Source: an uncultured Gammaproteobacteria bacterium
GTDB lineage: Bacteria > Patescibacteriota > Microgenomatia > Levybacterales > GWA1-39-11
DNA: 64,000 bases
Direction: 5' to 3'
Assembly: GCA_964450885.1 (NCBI GenBank)
Contig: CAYVFE010000001.1
Span: 160,489 to 224,488 of the forward strand
The notes beneath the pieces were generated by a model. It saw only the letters and a program-made list of their open reading frames with translations. It was not told the origin of the DNA and did not search any database. The translations under genes were made by a program, and so were the position numbers. Of the stretch, positions 2,085-31,312 are shown piece after piece. The first letter of the stretch is position 1; the number at the start of each line of letters is the position of its first letter.

Positions 2085-4065
<1,981 letters not shown>

Positions 4066-11164: not shown

Positions 11165-11198
11165 TGACAAATTAGCAGTCAATATGATAGAGTGCTAA
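11165..11198 (+). promoter_or_regulatory. TTGACA -35 box followed by a CIRCE operator (TTAGCAGTC-N9-GAGTGCTAA) upstream of hsp20
   Basis: ttgaca at 11165-11170. ttagcagtc aatatgata gagtgctaa at 11172-11198, one mismatch to the HrcA consensus TTAGCACTC-N9-GAGTGCTAA. Confidence 0.6.
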
Positions 11199-11230: not shown

Positions 11231-11668
11231 ATGGCAATAATTAGATGGAATCCTTGGAATATAGACCGTTTTTTTGAAGACGATTGGGATATGCCTACAG
11301 TTCCTGGTATTTCAAAGCTTATGGGACAGGGTCTAAACCTTTATGAGACAGAGGACGCGATAGTTGCAGAAGCTGCGCTTCCTGGTATCCCAGAGGATAA
11401 GATAGACGTGACATTTGAAAATGGCGTAGTTAGGGTTAGCGGAAGCGCTGAGGAGAAACAGGAAGAAAAGGAAAAGAGACGCTATTTTATGTCATCGATG
11501 GCAACTTCATATAATTACTCATTTAGAGTTCCAGAGGGAATCGTAAGTGATGGTGAACCTGAGGCAGAGATAGACGATGGGATACTAAGACTCACATTCA
11601 AAAAAGCCCAGAAAAAAGAACCAAAGAAAATAAAGATTACTAAAAAACTCAAGGTAGAGAATAAATAG
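11231..11668 (+). CDS. Small heat-shock protein (Hsp20/alpha-crystallin family)
   Basis: Strong RBS GGAGGTGA. Alpha-crystallin domain pattern AALPGIPEDKIDVTFENGVVRVSG. Confidence 0.85.
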   Translation: MAIIRWNPWNIDRFFEDDWDMPTVPGISKLMGQGLNLYETEDAIVAEAALPGIPEDKIDVTFENGVVRVSGSAEEKQEEKEKRRYFMSSMATSYNYSFRVPEGIVSDGEPEAEIDDGILRLTFKKAQKKEPKKIKITKKLKVENK

Positions 11669-13514: not shown

Positions 13515-13551
13515 TTGACAACAGTTAGCAGTCATGATATATTAGTGCTAA
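13515..13551 (+). promoter_or_regulatory. TTGACA -35 box followed by a CIRCE-like operator (TTAGCAGTC-N9-TAGTGCTAA) upstream of hrcA
   Basis: ttgaca at 13515-13520. ttagcagtc atgatatat tagtgctaa at 13525-13551, with the same left arm as the hsp20 site. An extra half-site ttagcactt sits at 13577-13585, just before the hrcA start. Confidence 0.55.
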
Positions 13552-13591: not shown

Positions 13592-14314
13592 ATGTACGAT
13601 TTAACGCAGAGACAAATAGAGATCCTGAAGCATATCGTAAAAGAATATACGGACACGGCGCTTCCTGTAGGCTCAGAGACCCTAGAGAAAAAGTATGATC
13701 TGGGAGTCAGTCCAGCGACCATCCGTAATGAGACCGCTGATATGGTCAAAAAAGGTTATCTGACTAAAGCTCACTCATCATCCGGAAATGTTCCGTCCTC
13801 AAAGGCAGTAAAGCTTTATATCAATGAGCTTATGAAGGAGAAGGAGCTTTCGGTAGCAGACGAGGTTGAGGCAAAAGAGAATGTTTGGGATCTTCGCGAG
13901 AAAGAGGCGCAGTTTTTGCGGGCTGCAACAAAAAAACTTGCGGAAAAAACAAAATCTCTTGCTGTTGCCAGTACGGATATAGGAGATATATTCTTTGCAG
14001 GATATTCAAATATTTTGAGCATGCCGGAGTTTTACGATATCGACGTAACAAAGAATCTGTTATCGATTCTGGATAACGATTCGTACTTTGACGCAATCTA
14101 TGGAAGGATTACAGAAAAATGCACTGTGATATTGGGAGACGAATTCGAGCAGGAAGTATTTCGCCCATACAGTTTCGTATTTGCTAAGTTTAATACCAGG
14201 CGGAATCATTCTGGATCAATAGGCGTGATAGGGCCATCTAGAATGCATTACGAATATATATTGCCTATCGTAAGACATTATGGAGCGTTAGTAGACGAGA
14301 TAGCAGATTGGTAG
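13592..14314 (+). CDS. hrcA: Heat-inducible transcription repressor HrcA (short form)
   Basis: N-terminal winged-helix pattern LTQRQIEILKHIVKEYTDTALPVGSETL...VSPATIRNETADMVKKGYL. First gene of the hrcA-grpE-dnaK order. Confidence 0.8.
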   Translation: MYDLTQRQIEILKHIVKEYTDTALPVGSETLEKKYDLGVSPATIRNETADMVKKGYLTKAHSSSGNVPSSKAVKLYINELMKEKELSVADEVEAKENVWDLREKEAQFLRAATKKLAEKTKSLAVASTDIGDIFFAGYSNILSMPEFYDIDVTKNLLSILDNDSYFDAIYGRITEKCTVILGDEFEQEVFRPYSFVFAKFNTRRNHSGSIGVIGPSRMHYEYILPIVRHYGALVDEIADW

Positions 14315-17100: not shown

Positions 17101-19494
17101 ATGAAGAAATTACTGCCCATAATTTGTTCTATTCTATTTGCTGCATTTGCTTTTTTCGCAGTAGTAAATACTTCTAATGCTCAGGTTATCGGCACAACTC
17201 CAACTCCCGAATCCCCATCAGGGGACTGGAAGAAAGATCAAGAGGTAACCTTTATAGGTAAGACCGCTGCCCGATCAAACGAATTTTTGCAATGGACGCT
17301 CCAGAATTATCAATGGATAAGTATCACTCCGGAAAATCCTACAAATCCTCTTGCTGAGTTCTGGGGTGTTATAAGAAATATTGTCTTGGCGCTTCTTGTG
17401 CTTTTTATTCTAGCAGCTGCATTTGTGATTATTATTACCCGTGGTCAGAACATAACCATAATGCGGTTTATCCCACGATTTATAATAATCATTCTTCTGA
17501 TTGTATTTTCTTTTGCTATCCTTAGATTTTTGTATCAATTTTTCGACGTAATCCAGGGATTTTTCCTTCGGACTACTGATCCTGCAGGAGGACCCGACAG
17601 ATTTATAGAGCCGAAAGACCTTTTATATATAGCTTTTGATTATAAGAGCTTCATAGGATTTAGGCAGGTTGGGATGGAGTTTGATGAGTCTGCTTATATA
17701 TCGCTTCTTTTGGTGAAAATTACTGCGGTTACATATTACGTGATGACAGGAATTCTTTTGATCAGAAAAATCATACTATGGTTTTTCATAATTATCTCAC
17801 CTGTTTTCCCATTGTTGCTATTTTTCAGGCCTCTAAGAAATACTGCAAAGATATGGGTGGGCGAATTTTTTAGGTGGCTTCTTTACGCTCCTCTGTTTGC
17901 AATATTCTTGCATGGGCTTGTCGTAATGTGGAGGGATAGGATTCCTTTGTCTTTTGATTTTTCTCAGGTTGGAACACAGATTTATCCTACTGCTATAAAT
18001 ATTTTACTAGGAGGTCCGGGACAGCAGATAGGGCTCAATAATTCTGTTAACTTTCGTGATACATTCGCACTTTATGTTGTAGCGCTTCTTATGCTTTGGG
18101 TGGTCATTCTTCTCCCCTGGCTATTGTTGCAGATATTTTTGGATTATCTAAATAATCTTTCGCTCTCTGAGACTCCTTTTTATCAAAGAATAGCCCAGAC
18201 GAATATCCCATTTATAAATAGGCCGATTGGTAAGGGACCAGATACGCCACCATCCGTTCCACCACAGGGTCCAGCATCAGCAGGGCTCGCCCGTAGTCTT
18301 CCATTTATGAACAAACGTGCTATGCAGATTCCTGTTAAGAAAGTTACAAGTGCCGACAATAACAAAAACATCTCATCTCGTCAAAATATCTCTAATATTT
18401 CATCTGAGACAAGCGAGGTAGTAAGACTTGCGAACCTTTCGGTTCCCAAGATGAGAGATATTGCCCGCATGGAATCGGCATCTATTACTAAGAATCAGTC
18501 AGTCCAAAACCAAAAGACGGAGATAACTAACAAATTGACGCAGATATCATCTCCCGCTTCTGCGCCGGCGATTGAGCGCGAAAAGATCACCACCATAAAA
18601 GAAAAGCTTGTACAGATGCAGCAAAAAGGAGATCCAGTCGCAAGTTCTATATTAAGTGCTTCAAGATTAGGATCGAGAGGAGCAATGACATCGGAGATGA
18701 TCAAAAACAAACTGGCGGTAACTTTGCAGCATATTGCAAGTCCTTCGATGGCTTTGACTGCGCAAGAGAGGCAGAAGGTGCAAGATATACGACAAGAGCT
18801 TTTGTCAGCTCAACAACAAGGCAATCCGCTTGCGACATATATCTTGGATATGAGTGAGAAAGTAAGTGGGGAAAACGTAAATGAAAAGGAGAAGCAGTCA
18901 CTTATAGATAGAGTAAAAGAGAAACTTTCAGCAGAAAAACAGAAAGGAAACAAACTTGCCGAAAAAGTGCTTCCAGCAGAAGGTGCAACAACGATCGCTG
19001 CAGCATCTCTTCCTAGTGTCAATCGAGTTCAGCAGGTAAGTCTGGATGAGTACGAAGAAGTCAAAAATATTTGGAAAGAAAACTATACGAATATGGAACC
19101 CCCTGCGCCTCTTGATGGTAAGACACTGACCAAGGAAGAATGGATCAATAATGATATTCAAAAAATAGATGAAACTATAAATCTACTTAGTTCTCCCGAC
19201 CAGACACAGGTACAAAAGGGCATGGAAATGGTTTCCGACATATTGCCGTTTCTACTCATAGGAGGTTTCTCAAAGGCTGAGGTCATTGCCTATCTTAAAG
19301 CAAAGCAAGCTGCCGGCAAAGAAGTCGCAGGGCAGGTTGAACAGAAGAGGAATGAGGAGGATACACTTCTTGAGAATAAGCCTAAGAAGGAAGAAAATTC
19401 AGCTGAGATGACGATGAAAAGAGAGTTGCCAATAGAAAACGCCCAGGAAAATAGTGGAAATCCTGATAAAGATCCATCAACAAATGCATCTTAG
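17101..19494 (+). CDS. VirB6/TrbL-like polytopic membrane protein with long C-terminal repeat-containing tail
   Basis: Signal peptide, about 6 TM helices and a roughly 400 aa hydrophilic tail. The tail has three imperfect repeats (EKLVQMQQKGDPVASSIL / QELLSAQQQGNPLATYIL / KEKLSAEKQKGNKLAEKVL). 2 nt gap after the pilin-like gene. Confidence 0.55.
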   Translation: MKKLLPIICSILFAAFAFFAVVNTSNAQVIGTTPTPESPSGDWKKDQEVTFIGKTAARSNEFLQWTLQNYQWISITPENPTNPLAEFWGVIRNIVLALLVLFILAAAFVIIITRGQNITIMRFIPRFIIIILLIVFSFAILRFLYQFFDVIQGFFLRTTDPAGGPDRFIEPKDLLYIAFDYKSFIGFRQVGMEFDESAYISLLLVKITAVTYYVMTGILLIRKIILWFFIIISPVFPLLLFFRPLRNTAKIWVGEFFRWLLYAPLFAIFLHGLVVMWRDRIPLSFDFSQVGTQIYPTAINILLGGPGQQIGLNNSVNFRDTFALYVVALLMLWVVILLPWLLLQIFLDYLNNLSLSETPFYQRIAQTNIPFINRPIGKGPDTPPSVPPQGPASAGLARSLPFMNKRAMQIPVKKVTSADNNKNISSRQNISNISSETSEVVRLANLSVPKMRDIARMESASITKNQSVQNQKTEITNKLTQISSPASAPAIEREKITTIKEKLVQMQQKGDPVASSILSASRLGSRGAMTSEMIKNKLAVTLQHIASPSMALTAQERQKVQDIRQELLSAQQQGNPLATYILDMSEKVSGENVNEKEKQSLIDRVKEKLSAEKQKGNKLAEKVLPAEGATTIAAASLPSVNRVQQVSLDEYEEVKNIWKENYTNMEPPAPLDGKTLTKEEWINNDIQKIDETINLLSSPDQTQVQKGMEMVSDILPFLLIGGFSKAEVIAYLKAKQAAGKEVAGQVEQKRNEEDTLLENKPKKEENSAEMTMKRELPIENAQENSGNPDKDPSTNAS

Positions 19495-19533
19495 CATTTG
19501 TTGAAGTAGTTGCTATTTGTCTATAATAAAAAT

Positions 19534-22443
19534 ATGTTTGGAGATTTATTTAAGAAAAAACAATACGAGCAAAATCCGGCGGCTCCTCAAAATCCGCAAG
19601 GACCATTTGCGCCTAATAATCAGTATCCTGTACAGCAAATGCAGCAGGGGCAAATGATGGGACAGCCTCAACAGATGCCAGCGCAAATGATGCCAAATCA
19701 AGGGATTGCTGGGTCGACGATGGATCCTGGAAAAAGGCAGAATGTAAATGCTCTTTCCCATTTAGATTCGCGCTCCAATCAGATACTTCAGCAGGCTCAG
19801 AGCGAAGCGAAGAAGTATCAGCATCCAGCGATAGAGCCAGATTTACTGCTTCTCTCTCTCACCTATGACAGAGAGATATATAAACTTTTGCAAAAGCATG
19901 AAGTGGATGTAGCATCCCTTGCAAAAGAAATAGAGTCCAAGCAGCAGGTAGGAACTGCGACAACTCCTCCTATTCTAAGTGAAAGTACTCAGCGTATTTT
20001 TGATGAATCTTATAAATTCGCTACAAAAAGAGCTTCAAGTTTTATTTCTCCGGAGGATTTGCTTTTGGCAGTCTTTTCATCGGAGGCGGCCCAAGCTCTT
20101 TTGACCTCAAAAGGAATCGATAAAAAAGATTTTGAGCAGACACTGGAAAAAGATTCAAAATTCAAGACCGGTAAAAAAAGCGTTATTGAGGAATATGGTA
20201 TAGATTTGACAGCTGAGGCTGGGAGCGGAAAGCTGGATCCAGTCGTCGGACGCGAGAAAGAAATAGAGAGGACGATTCATATATTGCTTCGAAGGAGCAA
20301 GAATAACCCAATCCTTATTGGAGAGGCGGGAGTAGGTAAAACTGCAATAGTTGAAGCACTCGCTCAGTTAATCGTAAAAAAGCAGGTCCCTAAGGATTTG
20401 CAGGATAAGAAAATAATTCAACTCGATCTAACATCGCTCATTGCGGGTGCATCTCATAGAGGGGAATTTGAGGAGAGGTTGAAAAACGTAATAAAAGAGG
20501 TGATGCTTTCTGAAGGAAGACTGCTGCTTTTCATCGATGAGATCCATACATTAATAGGTGCCGGAACTACTGATGGTGCGATGGATGCCTCAAATATTAT
20601 AAAGCCATATCTCGCGAGAGGGCAGTTGCAGCTGATCGGTACGACAACGACAGCAGAGTATAGAAAATATTTCGAGAAAGATAAAGCATTTCAAAGAAGA
20701 TTTCAGGCGATCATCATAGATGAGCCATCGATAGAGACCGCTATTGAGATGATGAAGGTTCTTCAGGTAAAGTATGAGAAATTTCATAACGTTACCATAA
20801 CGCCCGAAGCTATAGAGTATTCGGTTAAACTTTCTAAAAAGTATATTGGAGAACGATATTTACCTGATAAATCAATCGATCTTATAGACGAAGCGTCTGC
20901 TGAGGTAAAACTTATGGCTGCGGAGGGGAAGCGAAAAGATACTCAGGTGGTTCGATCTGACATAGAAAAAGTCGTAAGTGCTTGGACAGGAATACCCATA
21001 ACAAAGCTTACAGAGGATGAAAGCAAGAAGCTGTTAGGTCTTGAAGATCTGATCCATAAAAGACTTATAGATCAGGAGGAAGCTGTAAAATCCGTCTCAG
21101 AGGCGGTTAGACGCGGGCGTATAGGACTTGCCTCAGCAAATCGCCCGATTGCATCTTTTATATTTCTAGGCCCTACAGGAGTCGGTAAGACAGAGCTTGC
21201 AAAAACGCTTGCAGAAATTTTATTCGGCCGTGATGATGCGATGGTGAGGCTTGATATGTCTGAGTATATGGAAAAGCATGAGGTTGCAAAGCTTATCGGT
21301 GCACCCCCTGGGTACGTCGGTTATGAGGAAGGCGGACAGCTGACAGAGGCGGTTAGGCAAAAACCTTATTCTATAGTTCTGCTTGATGAGGTTGAGAAAG
21401 CACACCCTGACGTCTTTAATATTCTTTTGCAGCTTCTTGAGGATGGAAGACTTACAGATAATAAAGGAAATACTATATCATTTAAAAATACAATAGTTAT
21501 AGCTACATCAAATATTGGTAGTAAGCTTATCCAAGAGACTTTGACTACTCAAAAAGAAGTAAAGGCGCTATCTGTTGCTGCAGATAAAGATAGTAAAAAT
21601 GATAGGCAGAATGGTCAGGTTCAATCTGCTCAGCCGCAAGTTTCCCAGCCTCAATCCTCTGCTCCAAGCGACCAAAAGAAACCAGAGATGACAGAGGAGG
21701 AAAAAATCGATGAGAAAGTATTCAAAGAGCTCTCAAAAAATCTTATGGATGAGTTGATAAAGTTTTTCAGACCAGAGCTTATAAATCGTTTTGATGGGGT
21801 CGCAATATTTAAGCCACTAACAGAAAAGTATATGAATGCGATCGCCAAGTTAGGCATAAAAAATACCCAGAAATTACTCAAAGAACAGGGATTTGATCTT
21901 CAAATAACCGATAAGGCTATTGAAGTTCTGGCAAAGGATGGATTTGATCCCGTTTACGGAGCAAGACCCTTAAGACGTCTTATCCAAACAGTTATAGAAA
22001 ACCCGATAAGCATCGAGATAATCGGAAAAAAATTTATCCAAGGAGATATCATAATTGTTGATTATGATGAAGTTACTAAGAATTTTACCTTCAAAAAATC
22101 GCCTAATTCAAAAAGTTTGCAAAATAATTCTACGCAGCCAGGAGGAATTCCACAAAATCCTATAGATCCGAATATAGCTCCAGGTGATGCTTTGAATGTG
22201 AATGGTCAAATGCAAGGCCAACCAAATATGCAAAATGACATGAATGCAAATAATGGTTATCAGCAGGTTGGTCCGATACAAAATGGACAGGCGCAAATGC
22301 CACAACAGCAAAACGGTGGCATGATAGTAGATCCGGCAGCGCCAATTACCCAAGATCCTGCTCCCGCTCCTCCTCCTGTTGACCCGACAACGGGAGAGGC
22401 TATGACGATGGCAGTTAACGGAAATAATCAGAATCAATTATGA
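19534..22443 (+). CDS. ClpC/ClpB-family Hsp100 AAA+ unfoldase (two AAA+ modules, no M-domain, no ClpP-binding loop) with Gln/Asn/Pro-rich N- and C-terminal extensions
   Basis: Start taken at ATG 19534 (MFGDLF). The 19510 ORF start is TTG. Clp_N repeats. D1 has GEAGVGKTA and LLLFIDEIHTL. D2 has FLGPTGVGKTE and SIVLLDEVEKAHPDVFNILLQ. There is no coiled-coil insertion between DLIDEA and SAWTGIPI, and no [IVL]GF tripeptide. Confidence 0.85.
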   Translation: MFGDLFKKKQYEQNPAAPQNPQGPFAPNNQYPVQQMQQGQMMGQPQQMPAQMMPNQGIAGSTMDPGKRQNVNALSHLDSRSNQILQQAQSEAKKYQHPAIEPDLLLLSLTYDREIYKLLQKHEVDVASLAKEIESKQQVGTATTPPILSESTQRIFDESYKFATKRASSFISPEDLLLAVFSSEAAQALLTSKGIDKKDFEQTLEKDSKFKTGKKSVIEEYGIDLTAEAGSGKLDPVVGREKEIERTIHILLRRSKNNPILIGEAGVGKTAIVEALAQLIVKKQVPKDLQDKKIIQLDLTSLIAGASHRGEFEERLKNVIKEVMLSEGRLLLFIDEIHTLIGAGTTDGAMDASNIIKPYLARGQLQLIGTTTTAEYRKYFEKDKAFQRRFQAIIIDEPSIETAIEMMKVLQVKYEKFHNVTITPEAIEYSVKLSKKYIGERYLPDKSIDLIDEASAEVKLMAAEGKRKDTQVVRSDIEKVVSAWTGIPITKLTEDESKKLLGLEDLIHKRLIDQEEAVKSVSEAVRRGRIGLASANRPIASFIFLGPTGVGKTELAKTLAEILFGRDDAMVRLDMSEYMEKHEVAKLIGAPPGYVGYEEGGQLTEAVRQKPYSIVLLDEVEKAHPDVFNILLQLLEDGRLTDNKGNTISFKNTIVIATSNIGSKLIQETLTTQKEVKALSVAADKDSKNDRQNGQVQSAQPQVSQPQSSAPSDQKKPEMTEEEKIDEKVFKELSKNLMDELIKFFRPELINRFDGVAIFKPLTEKYMNAIAKLGIKNTQKLLKEQGFDLQITDKAIEVLAKDGFDPVYGARPLRRLIQTVIENPISIEIIGKKFIQGDIIIVDYDEVTKNFTFKKSPNSKSLQNNSTQPGGIPQNPIDPNIAPGDALNVNGQMQGQPNMQNDMNANNGYQQVGPIQNGQAQMPQQQNGGMIVDPAAPITQDPAPAPPPVDPTTGEAMTMAVNGNNQNQL

Positions 22444-22895
22444 TAAGAAATCTTTCAATAAAAAATAAAAAGTTGATAATAGTTTTGATATTTATAGCTG
22501 TTCTTATTCCTATAATAATATTTATTACAGCTTCAGTAGCTAAGTCAAATTCAAAAATTGATGACATAGCACCTACTCCTATCGATGAGATTCCAAGTGA
22601 GGAGGATGAAAATGCTTACGAATTAGAGCTTCTCGTAGGTGTTCCTACTATCATACCCGGGACTGATATAGAGCTCAAATTAGTCTCAACAAGTAATCAG
22701 CCTGCTGATTGTTTCGATTGTATAGCTTTGACAATAGTCGAGGTGCAAAGCGCAGGAGAAGTGGCTGTCTGGGACTATGCCTGCGGAGGATTTTCGGGGG
22801 AGTGTAATTATCAATTCAAAAAATTTGGATATGTAATCGAAGCCTTAGACTTGAAGATTGATTCGATGGTAGTAAAAGTTTATCCGGAAGAGTGA
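22440..22895 (+). CDS. Small N-terminally anchored protein with four Cys
   Basis: 151 aa, N-terminal TM helix IIVLIFIAVLIPIIIFI, Cys in CFDC...C..C context. ATGA overlaps on both sides. Confidence 0.45.
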   Translation: MIRNLSIKNKKLIIVLIFIAVLIPIIIFITASVAKSNSKIDDIAPTPIDEIPSEEDENAYELELLVGVPTIIPGTDIELKLVSTSNQPADCFDCIALTIVEVQSAGEVAVWDYACGGFSGECNYQFKKFGYVIEALDLKIDSMVVKVYPEE

Positions 22896-25800
22896 TGAAG
22901 AATAATATCCCCCAACCCGTGATATTTGGGATCATCGGGCTAGTTCTGTTTGCGATAGCCTTTTTCGCAATCCTTATTAGTTTGAATAATAATCCCAAAG
23001 CGAATGTGTCGATTTCCGGAGATGATACTATCCGGGAAATTACTGTCAAATATCCAGAGAGCGGATATATAGCCAGATCTACAAATGAGAATGCGGCAAG
23101 AGAGTATTTAGCTGAAAGCGGAATTGTAGGCGAGTCATATATAGATAATTCGGAGATAGCAAGGTCGGTTGAAGACGAAGATGATAGTAGTAGTTCAAGC
23201 GAACATAACATTCAAGTTCCTGCCAGTCATTATTTCTTTCAACAGTATATCGATGGAGTAGCAGTTCAGGACTCTATTTTAGGAGTCCATGTTCGCAATA
23301 ACAATGAAGTGTATTATGTTTCTGGAAATGCGCTGGTTACGTTTGATGTCGAAAGTGAGAATATTACTGTTGAAGAGGCCGTAAGTAAGGCGGTTGATGA
23401 AGCAAAAAAAGAAGTAGGTGAAACAGTAGATATGGAGCTGTCTACCGCAGAAAAAGTGATCTATAACAGTAAACTAATAGGTCTGTCTAGCGACAATAGA
23501 AATATCCCGACAGTAAAAGTGACAGTGAGCACTGAGGCAAATTCTTTAAATTTTGCCAAAGAGTATTTTATATCCCTTATAGATGGGGAAAAACTTGAAG
23601 AAAGAACACTCATTTTTCACGCACTCAACAGAACTATATTTGACTGTGGCGGATCCCAAACTTCGTGTTCGCAGGTTAGAAGCGAAGGAGCGCCTCCATA
23701 TGGAGCCAGGGATATAGATGACGGATATAATTACTTTGGCGATACATATAATTTCTATTTCAATAACTACCAAAGAGATAGTTATGACGGCAATGGTGCC
23801 CAGCTAAGAGGATATATGAACTATTATACGGGGAGTCCTAATGCAGGATGGGATTCGAAAGCTGGCAGGATGATCTATAGCTCGAATATGGTGACCCCAG
23901 ATATCACCGGACATGAGCTGACTCATGCAGTAACATCTTCTACAGCAGGGCTAATATACAACGCTCAATCAGGAGCCATAAATGAGGGGATGTCTGATGT
24001 GTTCGGGTGGGCTGTTGATCCTAACGATTGGACTTTGGGTGAAGGGTCTGCTTTGGGGGTCATAAGATCTTTAAGTAATCCCCCCTCCCATAATCAACCA
24101 GATAGACTTTTCGCATCTAACTATTGGTGCAGTTCAGCTGATAACTACGGTGTACATCAGAATAGCGGAATAATAAATAAAACCTTCTATCTATTAGTAG
24201 AAGGTGGCTCATTTAATACATGTAACGTATCTTCGATCGGCAAAGATAGAGCGCTGGCGATATTCTATCGCGCTTTAACCCGATATCTGACTCCGTCTTC
24301 TAATCTAAAAAATCTATATGATTCCTTACTACAATCATGTAACGATTTGTATGCAGGTGATGCGGGAGTTTGTGAGCAGGTAGATATTGCTTCACAGGCA
24401 ACAGAGATAGATCAACAGCCTGCTGGAAGCCAGTCAGGACCTGTGTGTTCTGGAAATTCTGGACAACCTCCTAAGTGCTCTGGAAATCAGGGAGGAACGA
24501 TTCCGACATCAGTACCGAACCAGCCAACATTAACACCAACGTCTGGAGCTCAGGTGAGATATTATATTTCAGGTAGGATATATCAAGATAATAACGGTAA
24601 TACCCAATATGATACCAGTGACACTCCATTGAGCAATCAGTCGGTGGGTCTTTCTGGGAGTTTTACAGACACCGTCAGTACGCTTTCTGATGGGACATTT
24701 ATTTTCGATAACCTTTTTAACGGAACATTCAATGTTTCTTATGATAGTAGTGCAAGAAATGATATCTCGCTTTCCCAGACGCAGAGTGCGGTGAGCGTCA
24801 ATTTTATCGTGACCAAGGATCCGTTAAATCCGACGCCAACTATAGTAGCTGGTCCTACATCCGTTCCTACGACTCCAACCCCTGCTGCATCCACCCCTAC
24901 CCCTGTATCTGCTACCACGATCCCTACTCCTACAACACCGATCCTATACACATGTGAGTATGATCCGAAATGTGCCACTGGAAAAAAGAATATACAGCTA
25001 TGTCCGCTTGTATGCACAGAGAAATTTGGCGATGGGGGAGGCGGGCGTGGAGGCTCGTCAATTCCTCCAGCACCTACGAGTACTCCTGGTGGCGGATCAG
25101 TGCCAACGTCTACTCCGCAGCCTGGTCAGGTGGCTACATCTACTCCTATTACTGGAAATGGGCAAGGTGCACCCTTGGATGTAGGGAGTCTCGTAAATGA
25201 TGTTTCGGAATCAAATATCAGAAACTATATGCAAAGTCTTGTTGATGATGATGATATCGCGGGGGATGACCAGTCACAAACAAGATACACCTCTACGAAT
25301 GGGAATCAGACAGAGGCAAATTATATATACAATACCCTTCAAGGTTTTGGATTAAACGTGGAGTATCAGCAATTTAATTTTTCCGGCAATACTACAAGAA
25401 ATATAATCGGGAAAGTTCCTGGGAAAGATGCAAATAGAGTTTATTTAGTTACAGCTCATATGGACTCGACATCCGGCTCGACTGATCCTGCTCCAGGCGC
25501 AGACGATAATGCCAGTGGGACAGTAGCAGTTATGGAGGCAGCAAGGGTACTAAAGACCATGCAGGACAAGTTGAATGTTTCGCTAGAATTTATTTTGTTC
25601 TCCGGGGAAGAGCAAGGGCTTTATGGGAGTTCGTATTATGCAGGAAATATTCCTTCAGGGAAAAAAATAGAGGGAGTTATAAATTTGGATATGATAGGAA
25701 ACGATTCAGGGAGCGCGTGTGTGAATTTTGGATATAAAAATTATAATGGTGGAGATATCATGTCAAACAAGATAATAGAGATGATCCAGAAGTATAATAT

Positions 25801-26014
25801 AAATCTTGGGGGATCATCTGTCTCCACATCAAATGCCAGAAGTGATCATGCTCCATTCTGGAGTAGAGGAATTCCAGCAATCTTTGGACATGAATGTACA
25901 TTTAGCTCTGTATACCATAGTACTAACGACAAGATCGAATTTATCAATTTTGCACAAATAACAAATACTGCAAAAGGAGTAGTTGCTGCGGTTGCAGAAT
26001 TATCAACACAATGA
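22892..26014 (+). CDS. Secreted fusion protease: M4 thermolysin-like endopeptidase (FTP+PepSY propeptide) - Cna-B/SdrD-like beta-sandwich - Pro/Thr linker - M28 aminopeptidase
   Basis: Signal anchor. FTP pattern HYFFQQYIDGVAV. HExxH in TGHELTHAV, third zinc ligand in NEGMSDVFG. M28 ligand pattern AHMDS, GADDNASG, GEEQGLYGS, NLDMIG and HSTNDKIEFIN. Confidence 0.8.
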   Translation: MMKNNIPQPVIFGIIGLVLFAIAFFAILISLNNNPKANVSISGDDTIREITVKYPESGYIARSTNENAAREYLAESGIVGESYIDNSEIARSVEDEDDSSSSSEHNIQVPASHYFFQQYIDGVAVQDSILGVHVRNNNEVYYVSGNALVTFDVESENITVEEAVSKAVDEAKKEVGETVDMELSTAEKVIYNSKLIGLSSDNRNIPTVKVTVSTEANSLNFAKEYFISLIDGEKLEERTLIFHALNRTIFDCGGSQTSCSQVRSEGAPPYGARDIDDGYNYFGDTYNFYFNNYQRDSYDGNGAQLRGYMNYYTGSPNAGWDSKAGRMIYSSNMVTPDITGHELTHAVTSSTAGLIYNAQSGAINEGMSDVFGWAVDPNDWTLGEGSALGVIRSLSNPPSHNQPDRLFASNYWCSSADNYGVHQNSGIINKTFYLLVEGGSFNTCNVSSIGKDRALAIFYRALTRYLTPSSNLKNLYDSLLQSCNDLYAGDAGVCEQVDIASQATEIDQQPAGSQSGPVCSGNSGQPPKCSGNQGGTIPTSVPNQPTLTPTSGAQVRYYISGRIYQDNNGNTQYDTSDTPLSNQSVGLSGSFTDTVSTLSDGTFIFDNLFNGTFNVSYDSSARNDISLSQTQSAVSVNFIVTKDPLNPTPTIVAGPTSVPTTPTPAASTPTPVSATTIPTPTTPILYTCEYDPKCATGKKNIQLCPLVCTEKFGDGGGGRGGSSIPPAPTSTPGGGSVPTSTPQPGQVATSTPITGNGQGAPLDVGSLVNDVSESNIRNYMQSLVDDDDIAGDDQSQTRYTSTNGNQTEANYIYNTLQGFGLNVEYQQFNFSGNTTRNIIGKVPGKDANRVYLVTAHMDSTSGSTDPAPGADDNASGTVAVMEAARVLKTMQDKLNVSLEFILFSGEEQGLYGSSYYAGNIPSGKKIEGVINLDMIGNDSGSACVNFGYKNYNGGDIMSNKIIEMIQKYNINLGGSSVSTSNARSDHAPFWSRGIPAIFGHECTFSSVYHSTNDKIEFINFAQITNTAKGVVAAVAELSTQ

Positions 26015-26690: not shown

Positions 26691-27557
26691 ATGGCAAAAG
26701 ATTTTTATGATGTTTTGGGCGTGAAAAAAGGGGCAAGTCCTGAGGAGCTTAAAAAAGCCTATAGGAAGCTTGCTGTCGAGTTTCATCCTGACAAGAACAA
26801 ATCGAAAGAGGCAGAAGGCAAATTCAAGGAGATAAACGAAGCCTATGAAGTGCTTTCAAATCCTGCGAAGCGCCAAAATTATGATCAATTCGGATCTAGC
26901 GGAGCTCAAGGCAGCGGACCTTTTTCGGGTGGAAATCCATTTGGTGGCGGAGGTGGTCAAGGTCCATTCAAATACTATTATTCTTCAAGCGGGGGAGGCT
27001 CACAGGGATTTGATTTCGGTGGGACAGATCCTTTCGATATTTTCGAACAATTTTTTGGTGGGGCTTCTCCTTTCGGTCGGCAAAAACCGTCATATTCTCT
27101 TGCTATCGATTTTATGGATGCGGTAAAGGGAGTAACAAAAAGAATCGACTTGAATGGAAAAAAAAGAGATATAAAAATTCCAGCCGGAATAAACTCTGGG
27201 CAAAGAATTAGATTTGATGATTTTGATATTGTAATTGATGTAAGACCTGACGATTTTTTTGAGCGCCGTGGCGCAGATGTATTCTCCGAAGAAGATGTGC
27301 CATTTACTATGGCGATTCTGGGGGGAGTAAAGGAAATAAGGTCGTTAGAAGGTAAGGTTAAGCTTAAGATTCCAGGAGGAACCCAGCCGGATACGTTGAT
27401 AAGGATTAAAGATAAGGGAATAAAGGAGATCAATGGAAGAGGGCATGGTAGCCACTTTGTAAGAGTAAAGGTGGAGATACCAAATAAGATAAATTCCAAG
27501 CAGAAAAAACTCATTGAGGAATTTGAGCAGGAGAGCTCAAAAAAGGGTTGGTTCTAA
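26691..27557 (+). CDS. dnaJ: DnaJ-family co-chaperone lacking the zinc-finger domain (CbpA/class II-like)
   Basis: J-domain DFYDVLGV...HPDKN, Gly/Phe-rich segment and C-terminal beta-sandwich domains. No CxxCxGxG repeats. Confidence 0.85.
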
Positions 27558-27607: not shown

Positions 27608-27961
27608 ATGAAAACTGCCCTGATGTATCCATTTGAGCTATTAATATTTTGGTATCATGATATTTGTCTGGGTGCGATAGATTATTTTACCCGCCTAAAT
27701 TCGTATATTTTGCAGGTTCTCTCTACGCCACTGCTTTTGAGAACATTCTTCAAGCCTCTCAAGAACGAGTACAGAAAGGGGCTCGTACTGTTCTCGATAG
27801 TCTTTGGAATTCTCGTGAAGACTTTTTTGATCGGATTTTCACTGACGGTCCTGTTGGTCCTTATAGTCATTGAGCTTTTTATTGTGGCGCTACTTTTTTT
27901 GTCGCCAATAATCTTAATCTATTTATTATATGCAGGAGAAAATATTTTTCAATTTATATAG
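27608..27961 (+). CDS. Small hypothetical membrane protein
   Basis: 117 aa with 3 hydrophobic helices. Overlaps the 5' end of the next gene in another frame. Confidence 0.3.
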   Translation: MKTALMYPFELLIFWYHDICLGAIDYFTRLNSYILQVLSTPLLLRTFFKPLKNEYRKGLVLFSIVFGILVKTFLIGFSLTVLLVLIVIELFIVALLFLSPIILIYLLYAGENIFQFI

Positions 27962-30308
27962 ATTTTTAACTAGCAAGGAGGGTGTTCTATTCAGAGCCTT
28001 ACTTTTCATTGTCTTGACACTTGTTCTCCTTCTGTTTGTTGATGAGCCCTCCGTTTTGTTAAGGATACTGCCTTTATATCTTATCTTTTTGCTACAGGAA
28101 TTATTCATTCATAAAAAACTTGAAAGAATTCATCCGGAAAAAAATGTTAACGACGCAAATGACTTAATTGACGCAACGGTATTTGATATAAGGTCAGAAC
28201 TGTCTTCTTCCAAGAGTGCTTTCACTCTTGTCGAGTCATTACTTATATCAAAGAAAGGGAAATTTATTCGGGAGCGGATAAGCCCCGAGCTTAAATTGAC
28301 TGATGCAAATATAACTAAAGATGCACTTTTGGATAAAGCTTCTGCTTTAGTGAAGGCATTAGAGGGAAAATATATTACATCTTTGGATATTATTACAGCC
28401 TACCTGTTGCTACAGGAGGAAAGTGCACGAATTCTTCAAGACAATAATTTGAATGAAAAAGATTTGCTTACTATTTTGTACTGGGCAAGGAAAAAATTTC
28501 ATATAGGTGAGGTAGAGCCTCCAGCATTTCTGTTTCATGGGAGTGGTGCATTTGATTCTTTGGTTTACGGGTGGACGCCGGAAACAAAAAATTATACATC
28601 TGATTTCACCACCGAGGTGTTAAGCCTTGATTACGAACCCAAAATAATTGGCCGCGAAAAAGACTATAGAGAATTTGTAGAAAGTCTTTCAAAAGGCTCT
28701 GCCAGCAATGTCCTTCTTGTGGGAGATCCAGGAGTTGGCAAGACTACCCTTGTTATGAAATTCGCCCACGATGCTTATAAGGGACTTCTTACAAAAAAAC
28801 TTAAGAATAAAAGAATATATTTTCTTTTTGTAGACAGATTGTTATCTGGTGCAGGCGACAAGGGGGAGATAGAAAGTCGAATCGGAAACATATTCACCGA
28901 AGTCTCACACTCCGGGAATATAATCGTTTTTATCGAGAATATAGAAAATATTTTTGGCGGCGGCGGCGGATTTGAGTTCGATATGTCGGGCGCTATACAA
29001 GCATATCTTGAAAGTAACAGGGTGCAAATCATCGGAACTATTAATCCTCAGGCTTACAAGGATTCTATCGCAACAAAACCTTCGGTACAATCTCTATTTT
29101 CAGAGATAGATTTGGATGCACCTGATCCGAAAATAGCTACATTCATGCTTATAGAAGAAGTAAATATAAGAGAAAAAATGTCAAAAGCGATAGTTACATA
29201 TGGCGCTATAAAAGAAATTGTAGAATCATCAGATCTTTATTCTCCTGATTCTTCTCTTCCCGGATCCGCTGTCAAGCTATTGGAGGATGTAATGGTCAGG
29301 AGTTTTAATTCAGGAAAGAATTTAATTACACGACATGAGGTTTCTGAGATGATAAAGGATAAAACGGGGGTTAAATTGTCTGCGCCTACAGAAGAAGAGA
29401 AGAATACGTTGCTTGCTATGGAGGAGACTTTGCACAAGAGTCTTATCGGCCAAGACGAAGCGGTTTCTTCGGTCTCCAACGCATTAAGACGACTTAGAAG
29501 TGGACTTAGAAAAAAGCAAGGCCCGATTGCATCCTTTCTATTTCTGGGCCCGACAGGAGTAGGTAAAACGACCACTGCAAAACTTTTAGCAAGGGAATAT
29601 TTTGGTAGTGAAGACCGGATGATAAGGGTCGATATGAGTGAGTACCAAACGCAAGATAGTATAAAAAAACTATTAGGCGAGATGCCTGGGGAACAAAGTT
29701 TCAAGAATTCTTTTGTAGACAAAATATCAGAGACCCCTTTTTCCATAGTTTTACTGGATGAATTCGAGAAAGCGCATCCTCAGCTTCTTGACGTTTTTCT
29801 ACAGGTTCTTGACGAGGGATTTGTCACAAATAATAAAGGTAAAAAAATATCGTTTACAAATGCGATAATAATCGCAACTTCAAATGCCGGAAGTCAATTT
29901 ATAAGAGAGAAAATAGAGTCAGGAGGCAGCGCTGTAAAGGATGAATTGATAGATTATATTTTGACAAAAAGTATATTCAAGCCGGAGCTTGTCAACCGTT
30001 TTGATGACGTTGTAGTATTCCATCCGCTATCAAAAGAGCAAGTTGTAAAAATTACAGAGTTAATGCTAACAGATTTAAAGGATAAGTTGATGGAACAATT
30101 TATTGATATAAGTTTTTCTGATAACGCGATAGACAAAATTTCTATAGAATCATTTGACCAAGATTTTGGAGCCAGAAATGTGAGAAGATATATAGAAGAG
30201 AATATTGAAAATCTCGTATCAAGAATGATACTTGAGGGTAAAATCAGCAAGGGTGAGAGATTTATTGTTGGCGTTGGAGATAACGGAGATTTTATTATAG
30301 AGCAGTAA
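27930..30308 (+). CDS. Membrane-anchored ClpC-like Hsp100 AAA+ ATPase with degenerate first AAA+ module
   Basis: Two N-terminal TM helices (LFRALLFIVLTLVLLLFV, LRILPLYLIFLLQELFI). D1 has Walker A GDPGVGKTT but the Walker B region reads IIVFIENIEN, where canonical members have IDEIH. The position normally holding ERRFQ reads QSLFSE. D2 is intact with FLGPTGVGKTT and SIVLLDEFEKAHP. Confidence 0.8.
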   Translation: MQEKIFFNLYRFLTSKEGVLFRALLFIVLTLVLLLFVDEPSVLLRILPLYLIFLLQELFIHKKLERIHPEKNVNDANDLIDATVFDIRSELSSSKSAFTLVESLLISKKGKFIRERISPELKLTDANITKDALLDKASALVKALEGKYITSLDIITAYLLLQEESARILQDNNLNEKDLLTILYWARKKFHIGEVEPPAFLFHGSGAFDSLVYGWTPETKNYTSDFTTEVLSLDYEPKIIGREKDYREFVESLSKGSASNVLLVGDPGVGKTTLVMKFAHDAYKGLLTKKLKNKRIYFLFVDRLLSGAGDKGEIESRIGNIFTEVSHSGNIIVFIENIENIFGGGGGFEFDMSGAIQAYLESNRVQIIGTINPQAYKDSIATKPSVQSLFSEIDLDAPDPKIATFMLIEEVNIREKMSKAIVTYGAIKEIVESSDLYSPDSSLPGSAVKLLEDVMVRSFNSGKNLITRHEVSEMIKDKTGVKLSAPTEEEKNTLLAMEETLHKSLIGQDEAVSSVSNALRRLRSGLRKKQGPIASFLFLGPTGVGKTTTAKLLAREYFGSEDRMIRVDMSEYQTQDSIKKLLGEMPGEQSFKNSFVDKISETPFSIVLLDEFEKAHPQLLDVFLQVLDEGFVTNNKGKKISFTNAIIIATSNAGSQFIREKIESGGSAVKDELIDYILTKSIFKPELVNRFDDVVVFHPLSKEQVVKITELMLTDLKDKLMEQFIDISFSDNAIDKISIESFDQDFGARNVRRYIEENIENLVSRMILEGKISKGERFIVGVGDNGDFIIEQ

Positions 30309-31312
30309 TGAAAATAGTAATTTTTGAAGCAGACAAAACGGAGCAGAATTATTTTGTGATGGCACTTCCATCGCATGAGCTAATTTTCGTGGATGATGAG
30401 CTTTCTTCTGACACTGTAGGTCAGGCGAAGGATGCGGAGATGGTTGTGGTGTTCGTATATTCAAGAGTAAGTAAGGAGCTAATTGACCTGATGCCAAATC
30501 TAAAATTTATTACGACTATGTCTACGGGCTTTGATCATATAGATCTTGATGCGGCAAAGTTAAAAAACATAGTAGTTTCAAATGTACCGGTATATGCAGA
30601 AACTGTAGTTGCAGAGCATGCATTTGCTTTACTTTTATCAATTTCAAGGCGCCTTGAAGAGTCTTTTGAAAGGGCAAGAAAAGGTGAATTCAACCCGGAA
30701 GGACTTACCGGATTTGAACTGAGAGGAAAGACCTTGGGAATTATAGGGATTGGTGCGATCGGTTCTCATGTGATTGAGATCGCGAATGGATTTGGAATGA
30801 ATGTCGTAGCTTACGCGAGGCATCCGGATTTAGTTATGGAGCAGAAGATGAGATTTAAACATGTGGATTTGCCAGTTCTTTTTTCGAAAAGCGATGTCAT
30901 ATCCTTGCATATACCTTACAATAAAAACACGCATCATTTTCTTTCAGAAGAACAGTTCTCTCAGATGAAGCAGAATGTAGTGGTAATAAATACTGCTCGA
31001 GGTGGACTTATCCATAATGGAGCGCTTCTAAAAGCGTTGGAGTCCGGGAAAGTTTATGCTGCAGGACTCGACGTACTAGAAGAAGAACCAGTTCTGCACG
31101 AAGAAAAGCAGCTGCTTTCAAATAAATTCGAGAAAGAGAAGCTGCAGTCGGTGCTTGAGGACCACATGCTTTGTAATCATCCAAAAGTAGTTATCACTCC
31201 CCATAACGCATTTAATAGTTATGAGGCGTTAAATAAAATTTTGGAGACGACACATGACAATATAGAATCATTTATTGCAGGAACTCCGATAAATATAGTC
31301 AATAAGGATTAG
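30308..31312 (+). CDS. D-isomer-specific 2-hydroxyacid dehydrogenase family protein
   Basis: NAD-binding GIIGIGAIGSHV and catalytic-domain patterns (ARGGLI...LDVLEEEP...HNAFNS). Confidence 0.8.
   Translation: MKIVIFEADKTEQNYFVMALPSHELIFVDDELSSDTVGQAKDAEMVVVFVYSRVSKELIDLMPNLKFITTMSTGFDHIDLDAAKLKNIVVSNVPVYAETVVAEHAFALLLSISRRLEESFERARKGEFNPEGLTGFELRGKTLGIIGIGAIGSHVIEIANGFGMNVVAYARHPDLVMEQKMRFKHVDLPVLFSKSDVISLHIPYNKNTHHFLSEEQFSQMKQNVVVINTARGGLIHNGALLKALESGKVYAAGLDVLEEEPVLHEEKQLLSNKFEKEKLQSVLEDHMLCNHPKVVITPHNAFNSYEALNKILETTHDNIESFIAGTPINIVNKD

Follow-up and report, generated by a model that had tools for sequence, protein, structure and literature searches.

Hsp100/Clp proteins are textbook AAA+ machines that thread polypeptides past the tyrosines of their pore loops. 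Here we describe a gene pair that encodes a divergent, membrane-anchored member of this superfamily together with a small membrane protein, located in a 64,000-nt stretch of DNA (hereafter the window; positions 160,489 to 224,488 of contig CAYVFE010000001.1, assembly GCA_964450885.1) placed by GTDB in the Levybacterales (Patescibacteriota; Microgenomatia). With positions counted from the first letter of the window, the two genes are as follows.

27608-27961, + strand, gene for the small membrane partner, 117 amino acids (aa), with an N-terminal amphipathic helix, a basic loop and a C-terminal transmembrane (TM) hairpin
27930-30308, + strand, gene for a membrane-anchored Clp/Hsp100 paralogue of 792 aa (hereafter the ATPase), without a ClpP loop and without an M-domain

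Judged by sequence and gene order, they are a conserved two-gene unit of candidate-phyla-radiation (CPR) bacteria. Because the pore tyrosines of both AAA+ rings (D1 and D2) are absent, the ATPase is unlikely to draw proteins through its pore in the manner of known Hsp100 proteins. We favour, at a level of confidence that is evenly poised, a reading in which the two overlapping genes would encode one membrane-embedded, ClpP-independent machine that is driven by D2, has a structural pseudo-ATPase D1 and handles its substrates in a non-canonical manner. Literature searches for membrane-anchored or CPR Hsp100 proteins returned no description.

The closest described relatives, ClpA, ClpC and ClpB, share with the ATPase the tandem D1 and D2 modules, the D2-small domain, a Clp_N-type N-domain of which the ATPase keeps a remnant, and the protomer fold. 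Like ClpA, the ATPase has no M-domain, as seen in single-stretch alignments with the TIGR02639 model and with ClpA structures, and like ClpB it has no ClpP loop. It differs from all three in its TM hairpin and obligate small membrane partner gene, in a D1 that lacks the Walker B Asp/Glu, the arginine fingers and the pore tyrosine, and in a D2 that lacks the GYVG tyrosine. Compared with ClpB/Hsp104, it is without the long coiled-coil M-domain that serves as the DnaK docking site and without the KYRG and GYVG tyrosines; compared with ClpC, it is without the short M-domain (the adaptor/UVR-like region) and the [LIV]G[FL] loop; and compared with ClpA, it is without the IGL loop and an active D1, and scores below the equivalog cut-off.

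Outside the Clp proteins, FtsH and Msp1/ATAD1 resemble the ATPase in having an N-terminal TM anchor and, as proposed for the ATPase, an ATPase ring facing the membrane and a role in membrane proteostasis. They belong to the classical clade, with only one AAA module, and depend on aromatic pore loops, and FtsH carries a protease domain, features that the ATPase does not share; Pfam and NCBIfam scans of the ATPase found no peptidase domain of the FtsH M41 zinc protease type. Threading by Pex1/Pex6 also uses aromatic pore loops, those of D2. NSF and p97 are type-II AAA+ proteins in which, as in the ATPase, one ring is degenerate. Two reports describe Pex1/Pex6 as a double ring at a membrane, one ring structural and inactive in hydrolysis and the other the motor, with substrate threaded through the central pore (PMC10518020, PMC9265785). 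Pex1/Pex6, in which D1 is dead and D2 active, differs from the ATPase in belonging to the classical AAA clade, in forming a soluble heterohexamer and in being recruited by a separate anchor. The eukaryotic Torsins, which act with LAP1 or LULL1 in the ER and nuclear envelope, come from the Clp/Hsp100 D2 lineage and carry an N-terminal hydrophobic membrane segment, lack aromatic pore loops and have a TM cofactor as partner (PMC5425593), all points of likeness to the ATPase. A Torsin, however, is a single AAA+ module in the ER lumen that receives its arginine finger from an AAA-like TM cofactor, whereas the ATPase has two modules and a D2 arginine finger of its own in all 77 members of its family (defined below), is predicted to face the cytoplasm and has a partner without an AAA-like fold. 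We draw the Torsin comparison as an analogy and claim no membership; the ATPase resembles Torsin, Pex1/Pex6 and FtsH/Msp1 in working principle or membrane geometry and, on the features just listed, is a member of none of them.

A preliminary description of this DNA, made from its letters and open reading frames (ORFs), had called the larger protein a ClpC-like Hsp100, an assignment that several comparisons bear out. The 792-aa protein matched Pfam AAA_2 (1.3e-46) and ClpB_D2-small (3.8e-20) in addition to a D1 P-loop. Among solved structures, ClpC of Staphylococcus aureus and of Bacillus subtilis and ClpB come closest, at ~1e-104, in alignments that span both modules. An AlphaFold2 (AF2) model of the monomer, built from 72 family sequences (mean predicted local distance difference test score, pLDDT, 84.4), superposed on ClpC and ClpB protomers in Foldseek with a target-normalised TM-score of ~0.8. 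In the model, an amphipathic helix (aa 2-13) comes first, followed by two long hydrophobic helices (aa 16-35 and 40-64), the N-domain, which is helical, and then both AAA+ modules. All structural statements made here refer to monomer AF2 models and alignments. By descent and fold the ATPase is a class-I (two-ring) member of the Clp/Hsp100 superfamily, and its NCBIfam equivalog scores fall far under the cut-offs (415 vs 1232 for ClpB TIGR03346; 383 vs 993 for ClpA TIGR02639).

To define the family, the N-terminal 470 residues of the ATPase served as the search query. At E<=1e-56 this yielded 77 protein clusters, whose lengths lie within 736-813 aa, with the next matches, canonical Clp proteins, starting from ~1e-28; motif counts were taken from these 77 members aligned with 11 canonical references. 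Named members are labelled by the source records as Levybacteria (the majority), Patescibacteria group or Parcubacteria, and the source databases label the proteins ClpC, ClpA or ClpB. Most genome contigs that carry the pair (L006-L026) are themselves labelled 'uncultured Gammaproteobacteria', a label that is probably a submission placeholder; one contig so labelled, CAYVKP010000001.1, carries family member P0149.

The first ring contains the following features.

28635-29309, + strand, D1 AAA+ module, a predicted pseudo-ATPase (aa 236-460)
28722-28748, + strand, D1 Walker A GDPGVGKTT (aa 265-273), intact here
28845-28880, + strand, D1 pore loop SGAGDKGEIESR, with Asp for the Tyr of KYRGEFE
28920-28949, + strand, D1 Walker B position IIVFIENIEN, then the family motif IENIFGGGG
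29085-29105, + strand, D1 arginine-finger position VQSLFSE, both Arg lost

The D1 motifs were placed by aligning the ATPase with ClpC of S. aureus and of B. subtilis and with a second, ClpC-like Hsp100 of the window, to which D1 is 31% identical. From an intact Walker A, an altered Walker B and a lost arginine finger, the preliminary description had proposed a D1 that binds ATP and is catalytically dead, and the alignments upheld each of these motif readings. GDPGVGKTT falls on the D1 Walker A of the ClpC proteins. FIENIEN (aa 334-340) aligns on FIDELHT, with Asp replaced by Glu and the catalytic Glu by Asn, such that FIEN stands on FIDE and no canonical DE is present, and QSLFS (aa 387-391) aligns on ERRFQ with neither Arg kept. 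The pore loop is changed from KYRGEFE to GDKGEIE, with D310 at the Tyr position.

These substitutions extend across the family. The Walker B Asp is found in 0/77 members (Pro in 33, Glu in 21, Gln in 20) vs 11/11 references, the catalytic Glu in 19/77 (Asn in 46) vs 10/11, and the pore-loop Tyr in 0/77 vs 9/11; each of the two arginine fingers is missing from every member (0/77 and 0/77) and present in every reference (11/11 and 11/11). The Walker A Lys is kept in 73/77 members and the Walker A Thr/Ser in 52/77 (Glu/Asp in 19), compared with 11/11 references in both cases. Given the Walker B, arginine-finger and Walker A counts, D1 is, to judge from its motifs, a pseudo-ATPase family-wide. FIEN resembles a naturally occurring Walker B 'trap', and in the subfamily of the window D1 probably binds nucleotide, with no hydrolysis predicted; binding in distant members of the family is doubtful.

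D2 presents a different combination of features.

29427-30302, + strand, D2 AAA+ module and D2-small domain (aa 500-791), catalytically complete
29676-29714, + strand, D2 pore loop GEMPGEQSFKNSF, with Glu for the GYVG Tyr and two residues shorter than canonical

The Walker A Lys, Walker B Glu, sensor-1 Asn, arginine finger (R690) and sensor-2 Arg are each conserved in 77/77 members and the Walker B Asp in 76/77, and the module is ~40-43% identical to D2 of ClpA, ClpC and ClpB. The statement that D2 is canonical is therefore correct for its catalytic residues (76-77/77) but not for its pore loop, where the GYVG Tyr is absent in 77/77. PGYVGY has become PGEQSF in the window protein, placing E588 at the Tyr position, and across the family the Tyr is found in 0/77 and Glu takes its place in 45/77. 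Most members have a loop two residues below the canonical length, and in 7/77 it is eight residues shorter. PADLOC matches to DolB and PDC-M37B span only the generic D2 and the surrounding genes are housekeeping and heat-shock genes, on which grounds we rejected an anti-phage defence system.

The pore loops bear directly on whether the ATPase could be a dislocase or quality-control extractor of the classical kind, whose hexamer would remove membrane proteins from the bilayer by threading them hand-over-hand through D1 and D2 in the manner of Msp1, FtsH or ClpB. Such a role would fit the membrane anchor, with the predicted entry face turned to the bilayer, the intact D2 motor and the position of the gene within a heat-shock locus, and in the D2 loop of the window's subfamily a Phe remains at a shifted position (PGEQSF, F591). 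However, the pore Tyr is missing from both rings in 77/77 members, Glu occupies the D2 Tyr position in the 45 noted above, and 33/77 have no aromatic residue whatsoever in the D2 loop, which is also eight residues shorter in the 7 members mentioned and deleted in a fused variant in which the partner and the ATPase form one protein. Processive unfolding by Clp/Hsp100 proteins is described as depending critically on aromatic pore loops (PMC5425593), and since these loops are lost, and in some members deleted, classical threading is unlikely for the family as a whole. For the subfamily of the window, we rate the extractor as unlikely, though as a serious minority candidate. The suggestion in the preliminary description of a factor for membrane-protein extraction or quality control survives in part: the tether and the link to the partner are upheld, and classical threading is doubtful, given that both pore tyrosines are absent in 77/77.

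The membrane segment of the ATPase precedes its N-domain.

27975-28121, + strand, TM hairpin (TM1 aa 16-35, TM2 aa 40-64), from Kyte-Doolittle hydropathy, AF2 and charge statistics

A Kyte-Doolittle scan located the hydrophobic hairpin in all 77 members; P0183 and P0197 seemed to lack it owing to miscalled start codons, and their full ORFs carry it. Averaged over the family, 3.4 K+R precede TM1 and 3.2 K+R follow TM2, and the 7-residue inter-helix loop has 0.27 K+R and 1.0 D+E. With two helices of at least 19 residues and charges distributed according to the positive-inside rule, the hairpin fits a predicted N-in/C-in topology. R22, E57 and F59, in or around the helices, are near-invariant, and because of this the hairpin probably is more than a passive anchor. 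Tethering by two N-terminal TM helices, as first proposed from the letters, is thus backed jointly by hydropathy, AF2 and the positive-inside charges. We also considered a cleaved signal peptide in place of the anchor, with the protein exported or soluble, a reading for which the closeness of the hydrophobicity to the N-terminus is the sole support. The two helices of at least 20 residues are separated by a 7-residue acidic loop and flanked on both sides by basic residues, a conserved 15-residue amphipathic helix precedes them in the AF2 model, R22, E57 and F59 are conserved within or beside them, and an exported AAA+ ATPase would be without ATP. Based on the hydropathy, the AF2 helices and the positive-inside charge pattern, we rejected the signal peptide, which we regard as extremely improbable.

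The small partner also is predicted to be a membrane protein, with the following elements.

27743-27781, + strand, invariant loop TFFKPLKNEYRKG (aa 46-58), predicted cytoplasmic
27779-27922, + strand, hydrophobic hairpin (aa 58 to ~105), from hydropathy, charge profile and alignment

In an alignment of 49 sequences, T46, F48, P50, K52, N53, E54, Y55, R56 and G58 of the loop are invariant, and the loop averages 4.6 K+R. Within the hairpin K71 is invariant and E89 near-invariant, and an AF2 model of the protein (pLDDT 89.9) has a helix spanning residues 57-116. We found 182 stand-alone homologues of ~105-120 aa, with a range of 96-152 aa among the matches listed, and a profile search of 1.84 billion representative proteins recovered 56 relatives, all of 44-152 aa; the small-protein family is narrow and in that library never a domain of a large protein. 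The protein had no match in Pfam, NCBIfam, PADLOC or PDB sequences, Foldseek comparison with the PDB gave only hits of E>1, and no AAA-like fold was found by AF2 and PDB comparison. The idea that the ATPase hairpin is a duplicate of the partner hairpin was rejected, as hhalign gave 1% probability and a reversed-sequence control was no worse.

The partner and ATPase genes occur together wherever the comparison could be made. When loci were collected by their ATPase gene, 26/26 genome loci had a small-ORF homologue immediately 5´ on the same strand; this genome scan, with a 7-sequence alignment as the query, reached only the subfamily with the [IF][QEP]NIENIF motif. Starting from the small protein, the ATPase gene is next in 62/66 metagenome loci with at least 300 nt downstream, and of the four exceptions one has a split ORF and the other three offer too short a sequence. 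The two ORFs of the window share 32 nt. Among 24 junctions, 15 are ATGA overlaps, and the others are overlaps of 4 (TTG start), 8, 11 or, in the window, 32 nt, or gaps of 0-1 nt; relative to the small ORF, the frame of the ATPase is offset by +1 or +2, depending on the lineage. This pattern is the sequence signature expected of two translationally coupled genes rather than of a frameshifted single gene, and on the same evidence the partner gene is obligate and separate from the ATPase gene.

In one lineage, the partner and ATPase are fused in frame, with an identical junction in two independent assemblies (L065:2902-5412 and L063:2895-3488). The small protein there runs straight into the post-TM2 linker of the ATPase, whose own hairpin is absent. 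Since this fusion occurs naturally, it argues that both proteins act together physically, and it places the C-terminus of the partner on the predicted cytoplasmic side. The pairing counts (26/26 and 62/66) and the fusion strengthen the suggestion of the preliminary description that the ATPase is linked in function to the small membrane ORF before it.

The same description had offered a +1 frameshift as another way to join the two ORFs. In that case the 117-aa and 792-aa ORFs would be parts of one gene, broken at 27930-27961 by a +1 frameshift or a sequencing error, as might be suspected from the 32-nt overlap and from the existence of a real in-frame fusion in one lineage. The ORFs are, however, separate in the 26/26 and 62/66 loci, the junctions are ATGA overlaps in 15/24 with a frame offset that varies by lineage, and the relatives of the small protein are all small (182 homologues and 56 library representatives). 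In addition, the N-terminus of the ATPase, MQEKIFFNLY, is conserved from its ATG, and the fusion deletes the ATPase hairpin, making it a different architecture and not the ancestral state. Synteny, junctions and homologue lengths led us to reject the single-gene reading, to which we attach almost no credence. Gene callers left the partner ORF unannotated upstream of the ATPase in four loci (L001, L002, L003 and L004), leaving gaps of 390-550 nt, and for this reason the pairing is invisible in existing annotation.

Between the hairpin and D1 lie two further conserved segments.

28164-28496, + strand, helical N-domain, divergent Clp_N-like (aa 79-189), from hhalign, TIGR02639 and AF2
28539-28610, + strand, family-specific linker FxGxGxFDxLVxGWTxETKKYTxDxT (aa 204-227), from conservation

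In hhalign comparison with canonical Clp N-domains, the second repeat reached a probability of 94%. The alignment with the ClpA model TIGR02639 begins at aa 128, and the N-domain of the AF2 model is all-helical. In the linker G206 and W215 are invariant. It falls in the only low-confidence stretch of the model (pLDDT 60-70 over aa 190-220), and being conserved yet of low confidence it suggests a candidate partner- or client-binding segment. Alignment with the canonical references showed no insertion between D1-small and D2 that could represent an M-domain, and the [LIV]G[FL] ClpP-docking tripeptide, sought in the D2 alignment with canonical ClpC references, was not found.

In the window the pair lies in a low-GC setting (G+C ~39% around the heat-shock locus) with the following neighbours.

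2085-4065, groES/groEL, in the heat-shock region of the window
11172-11198, inverted repeat CIRCE (controlling inverted repeat of chaperone expression, the HrcA operator), 5´ of an hsp20 gene (11231-11668)
13525-13551, CIRCE inverted repeat, 5´ of hrcA (13592-14314)
17101-19494, + strand, 797-aa ORF of the heat-shock operon, flanked by dnaK and the ClpC-like gene
19510-22443, + strand, ClpC-like Hsp100 gene
22892-26014, + strand, large secreted peptidase gene, M4-type in appearance with a second M28-like domain, judged from the translation only
26691-27557, + strand, dnaJ, the upstream neighbour here though not universally, from Pfam and synteny counts
30308-31312, + strand, D-isomer-specific 2-hydroxyacid dehydrogenase gene (Pfam), overlapping the ATPase stop by 1 nt

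The CIRCE sites have 1 and 2 mismatches, against a chance expectation of 0.03, and hrcA, grpE, dnaK, the clpC-like gene, dnaJ and then the pair, as assigned by Pfam, are all on the same strand. A search for a terminator-like site in the interval from dnaJ to the pair saw none. A polyprenyl synthase gene follows the dehydrogenase gene. The ATPase gene had been described as directly following dnaJ, which needs correction, as the small ORF at 27608-27961 intervenes. Between the ClpC-like gene and dnaJ are a small membrane ORF, the secreted peptidase gene and a membrane ORF; the M4/M28-type label of the peptidase is based on HExxH in the translation and on M4 peptidase genes at the equivalent position in related loci. 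The 797-aa ORF had zero Pfam matches at E<=1e-5.

Among the neighbours examined, only the pairing of small ORF and ATPase is universal. DnaJ is encoded directly 5´ of the pair in 15/49 metagenome loci having enough upstream sequence, and the dehydrogenase gene is directly 3´ in 23/26 genome loci, which represent the nearer subfamily, vs 11/35 metagenome loci. The ClpC-like gene and a secreted peptidase gene are found farther 5´ in several lineages and inverted in two. Membership in a stress locus, another element of the preliminary description, is thus true in this window, where CIRCE, hrcA, grpE, dnaK, clpC and dnaJ are present, but does not hold generally (DnaJ in the 15/49) and is no defining property of the pair. 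Separately, the placement of a secreted peptidase between the ClpC-like gene and dnaJ recurs in L001, L003, L010, L018 and L019, with an S8 peptidase in L001:798-2693 and an M4 peptidase in L003:3530-5611 and others; this conserved placement within a cytoplasmic chaperone cluster is unexplained.

The ClpC-like Hsp100 of the window has unusual features of its own. It is without an M-domain and without the [LIVM]G[FL] ClpP loop, its D1 pore loop is GASHRGEFE with His replacing Tyr in three CPR lineages (the window, L003:386-3466 and L086:2-3898), and it has an 82-aa low-complexity D2 insert and Q/P-rich N- and C-terminal extensions. It keeps the D2 GYVG and all catalytic motifs.

Having both Hsp100 genes clustered in several lineages, and both proteins without an M-domain and a ClpP loop, would be in line with a role for the ATPase as a membrane tether or regulator of the ClpC-like chaperone (19510-22443), through mixed oligomers or membrane recruitment, with no motor activity itself. 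Strict conservation of the D2 catalytic residues nevertheless argues for an ATPase function of its own, the pair is often far from clpC, and the D1 identity to the ClpC-like protein is only 31%. We consider this tethering role distinctly improbable.

We therefore return to the favoured reading, a ClpP-independent membrane machine driven by D2. The ATPase would form a hexamer like its relatives, in which D1 would be a nucleotide-insensitive structural ring, as are the degenerate rings of Pex1/Pex6 or NSF, and D2 the only motor. Because the TM hairpin precedes the N-domain, the entry face formed by the N-domain and D1 would be turned towards the membrane. With two TM helices per ATPase subunit and two per partner, and six copies of each, the ring could be seated above a TM bundle of as many as 24 helices. 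The absence of a ClpP loop predicts that the machine works without feeding ClpP, and the absence of an M-domain that it works without the DnaK-to-M-domain coupling that regulates ClpB.

Most likely, ATP turnover in D2 would remodel the membrane partner, or membrane-associated clients presented by the partner. In place of Tyr pore loops, the working surfaces would be others, such as the N-domain, the GWTxET linker and the KPLKNEYRKG loop of the partner, and processive ClpB-style threading would be less likely. In this organism the pair probably is co-expressed with the HrcA/CIRCE heat-shock operon, and this probable co-expression suggests a role in envelope or membrane proteostasis.

Several points weigh against this model. 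The hexamer, the partner contact and the membrane orientation derive from homology and gene order, and the AF2 model of the ATPase is a monomer without the partner. A shifted aromatic residue is present in the D2 pore loop of 44/77 members, including the window protein (F591 and F595), so that non-canonical threading keeps some likelihood in this subfamily, and by metagenome synteny the heat-shock linkage is lineage-specific.

By analogy with the Torsins, we tentatively entertain a bacterial counterpart of the Torsin principle, in which threading would have been given up and D2 would switch or remodel a 24-helix membrane assembly with the obligate partner; we hold this as possible, though doubtful. 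If true, the pair would be an ATP-driven membrane gate, an assembly factor or a signalling switch, confined to Microgenomates and other CPR bacteria.

The family joins a perfect D2 site, loss of the tyrosine in both rings and in some members of the entire D2 loop, a pseudo-ATPase D1, a membrane build and an obligate partner. As such, it would be a natural experiment on the function of an Hsp100 ring without threading, and would offer a tractable prokaryotic analogue for the still unexplained mechanism of the Torsins. Public annotation pipelines name the ATPase 'ClpC', 'ClpA' or 'ClpB', and the partner gene frequently escapes them. Collectively, the pair flags an uncharacterised, lineage-specific part of envelope proteostasis in CPR bacteria, a group about whose biology little is known.

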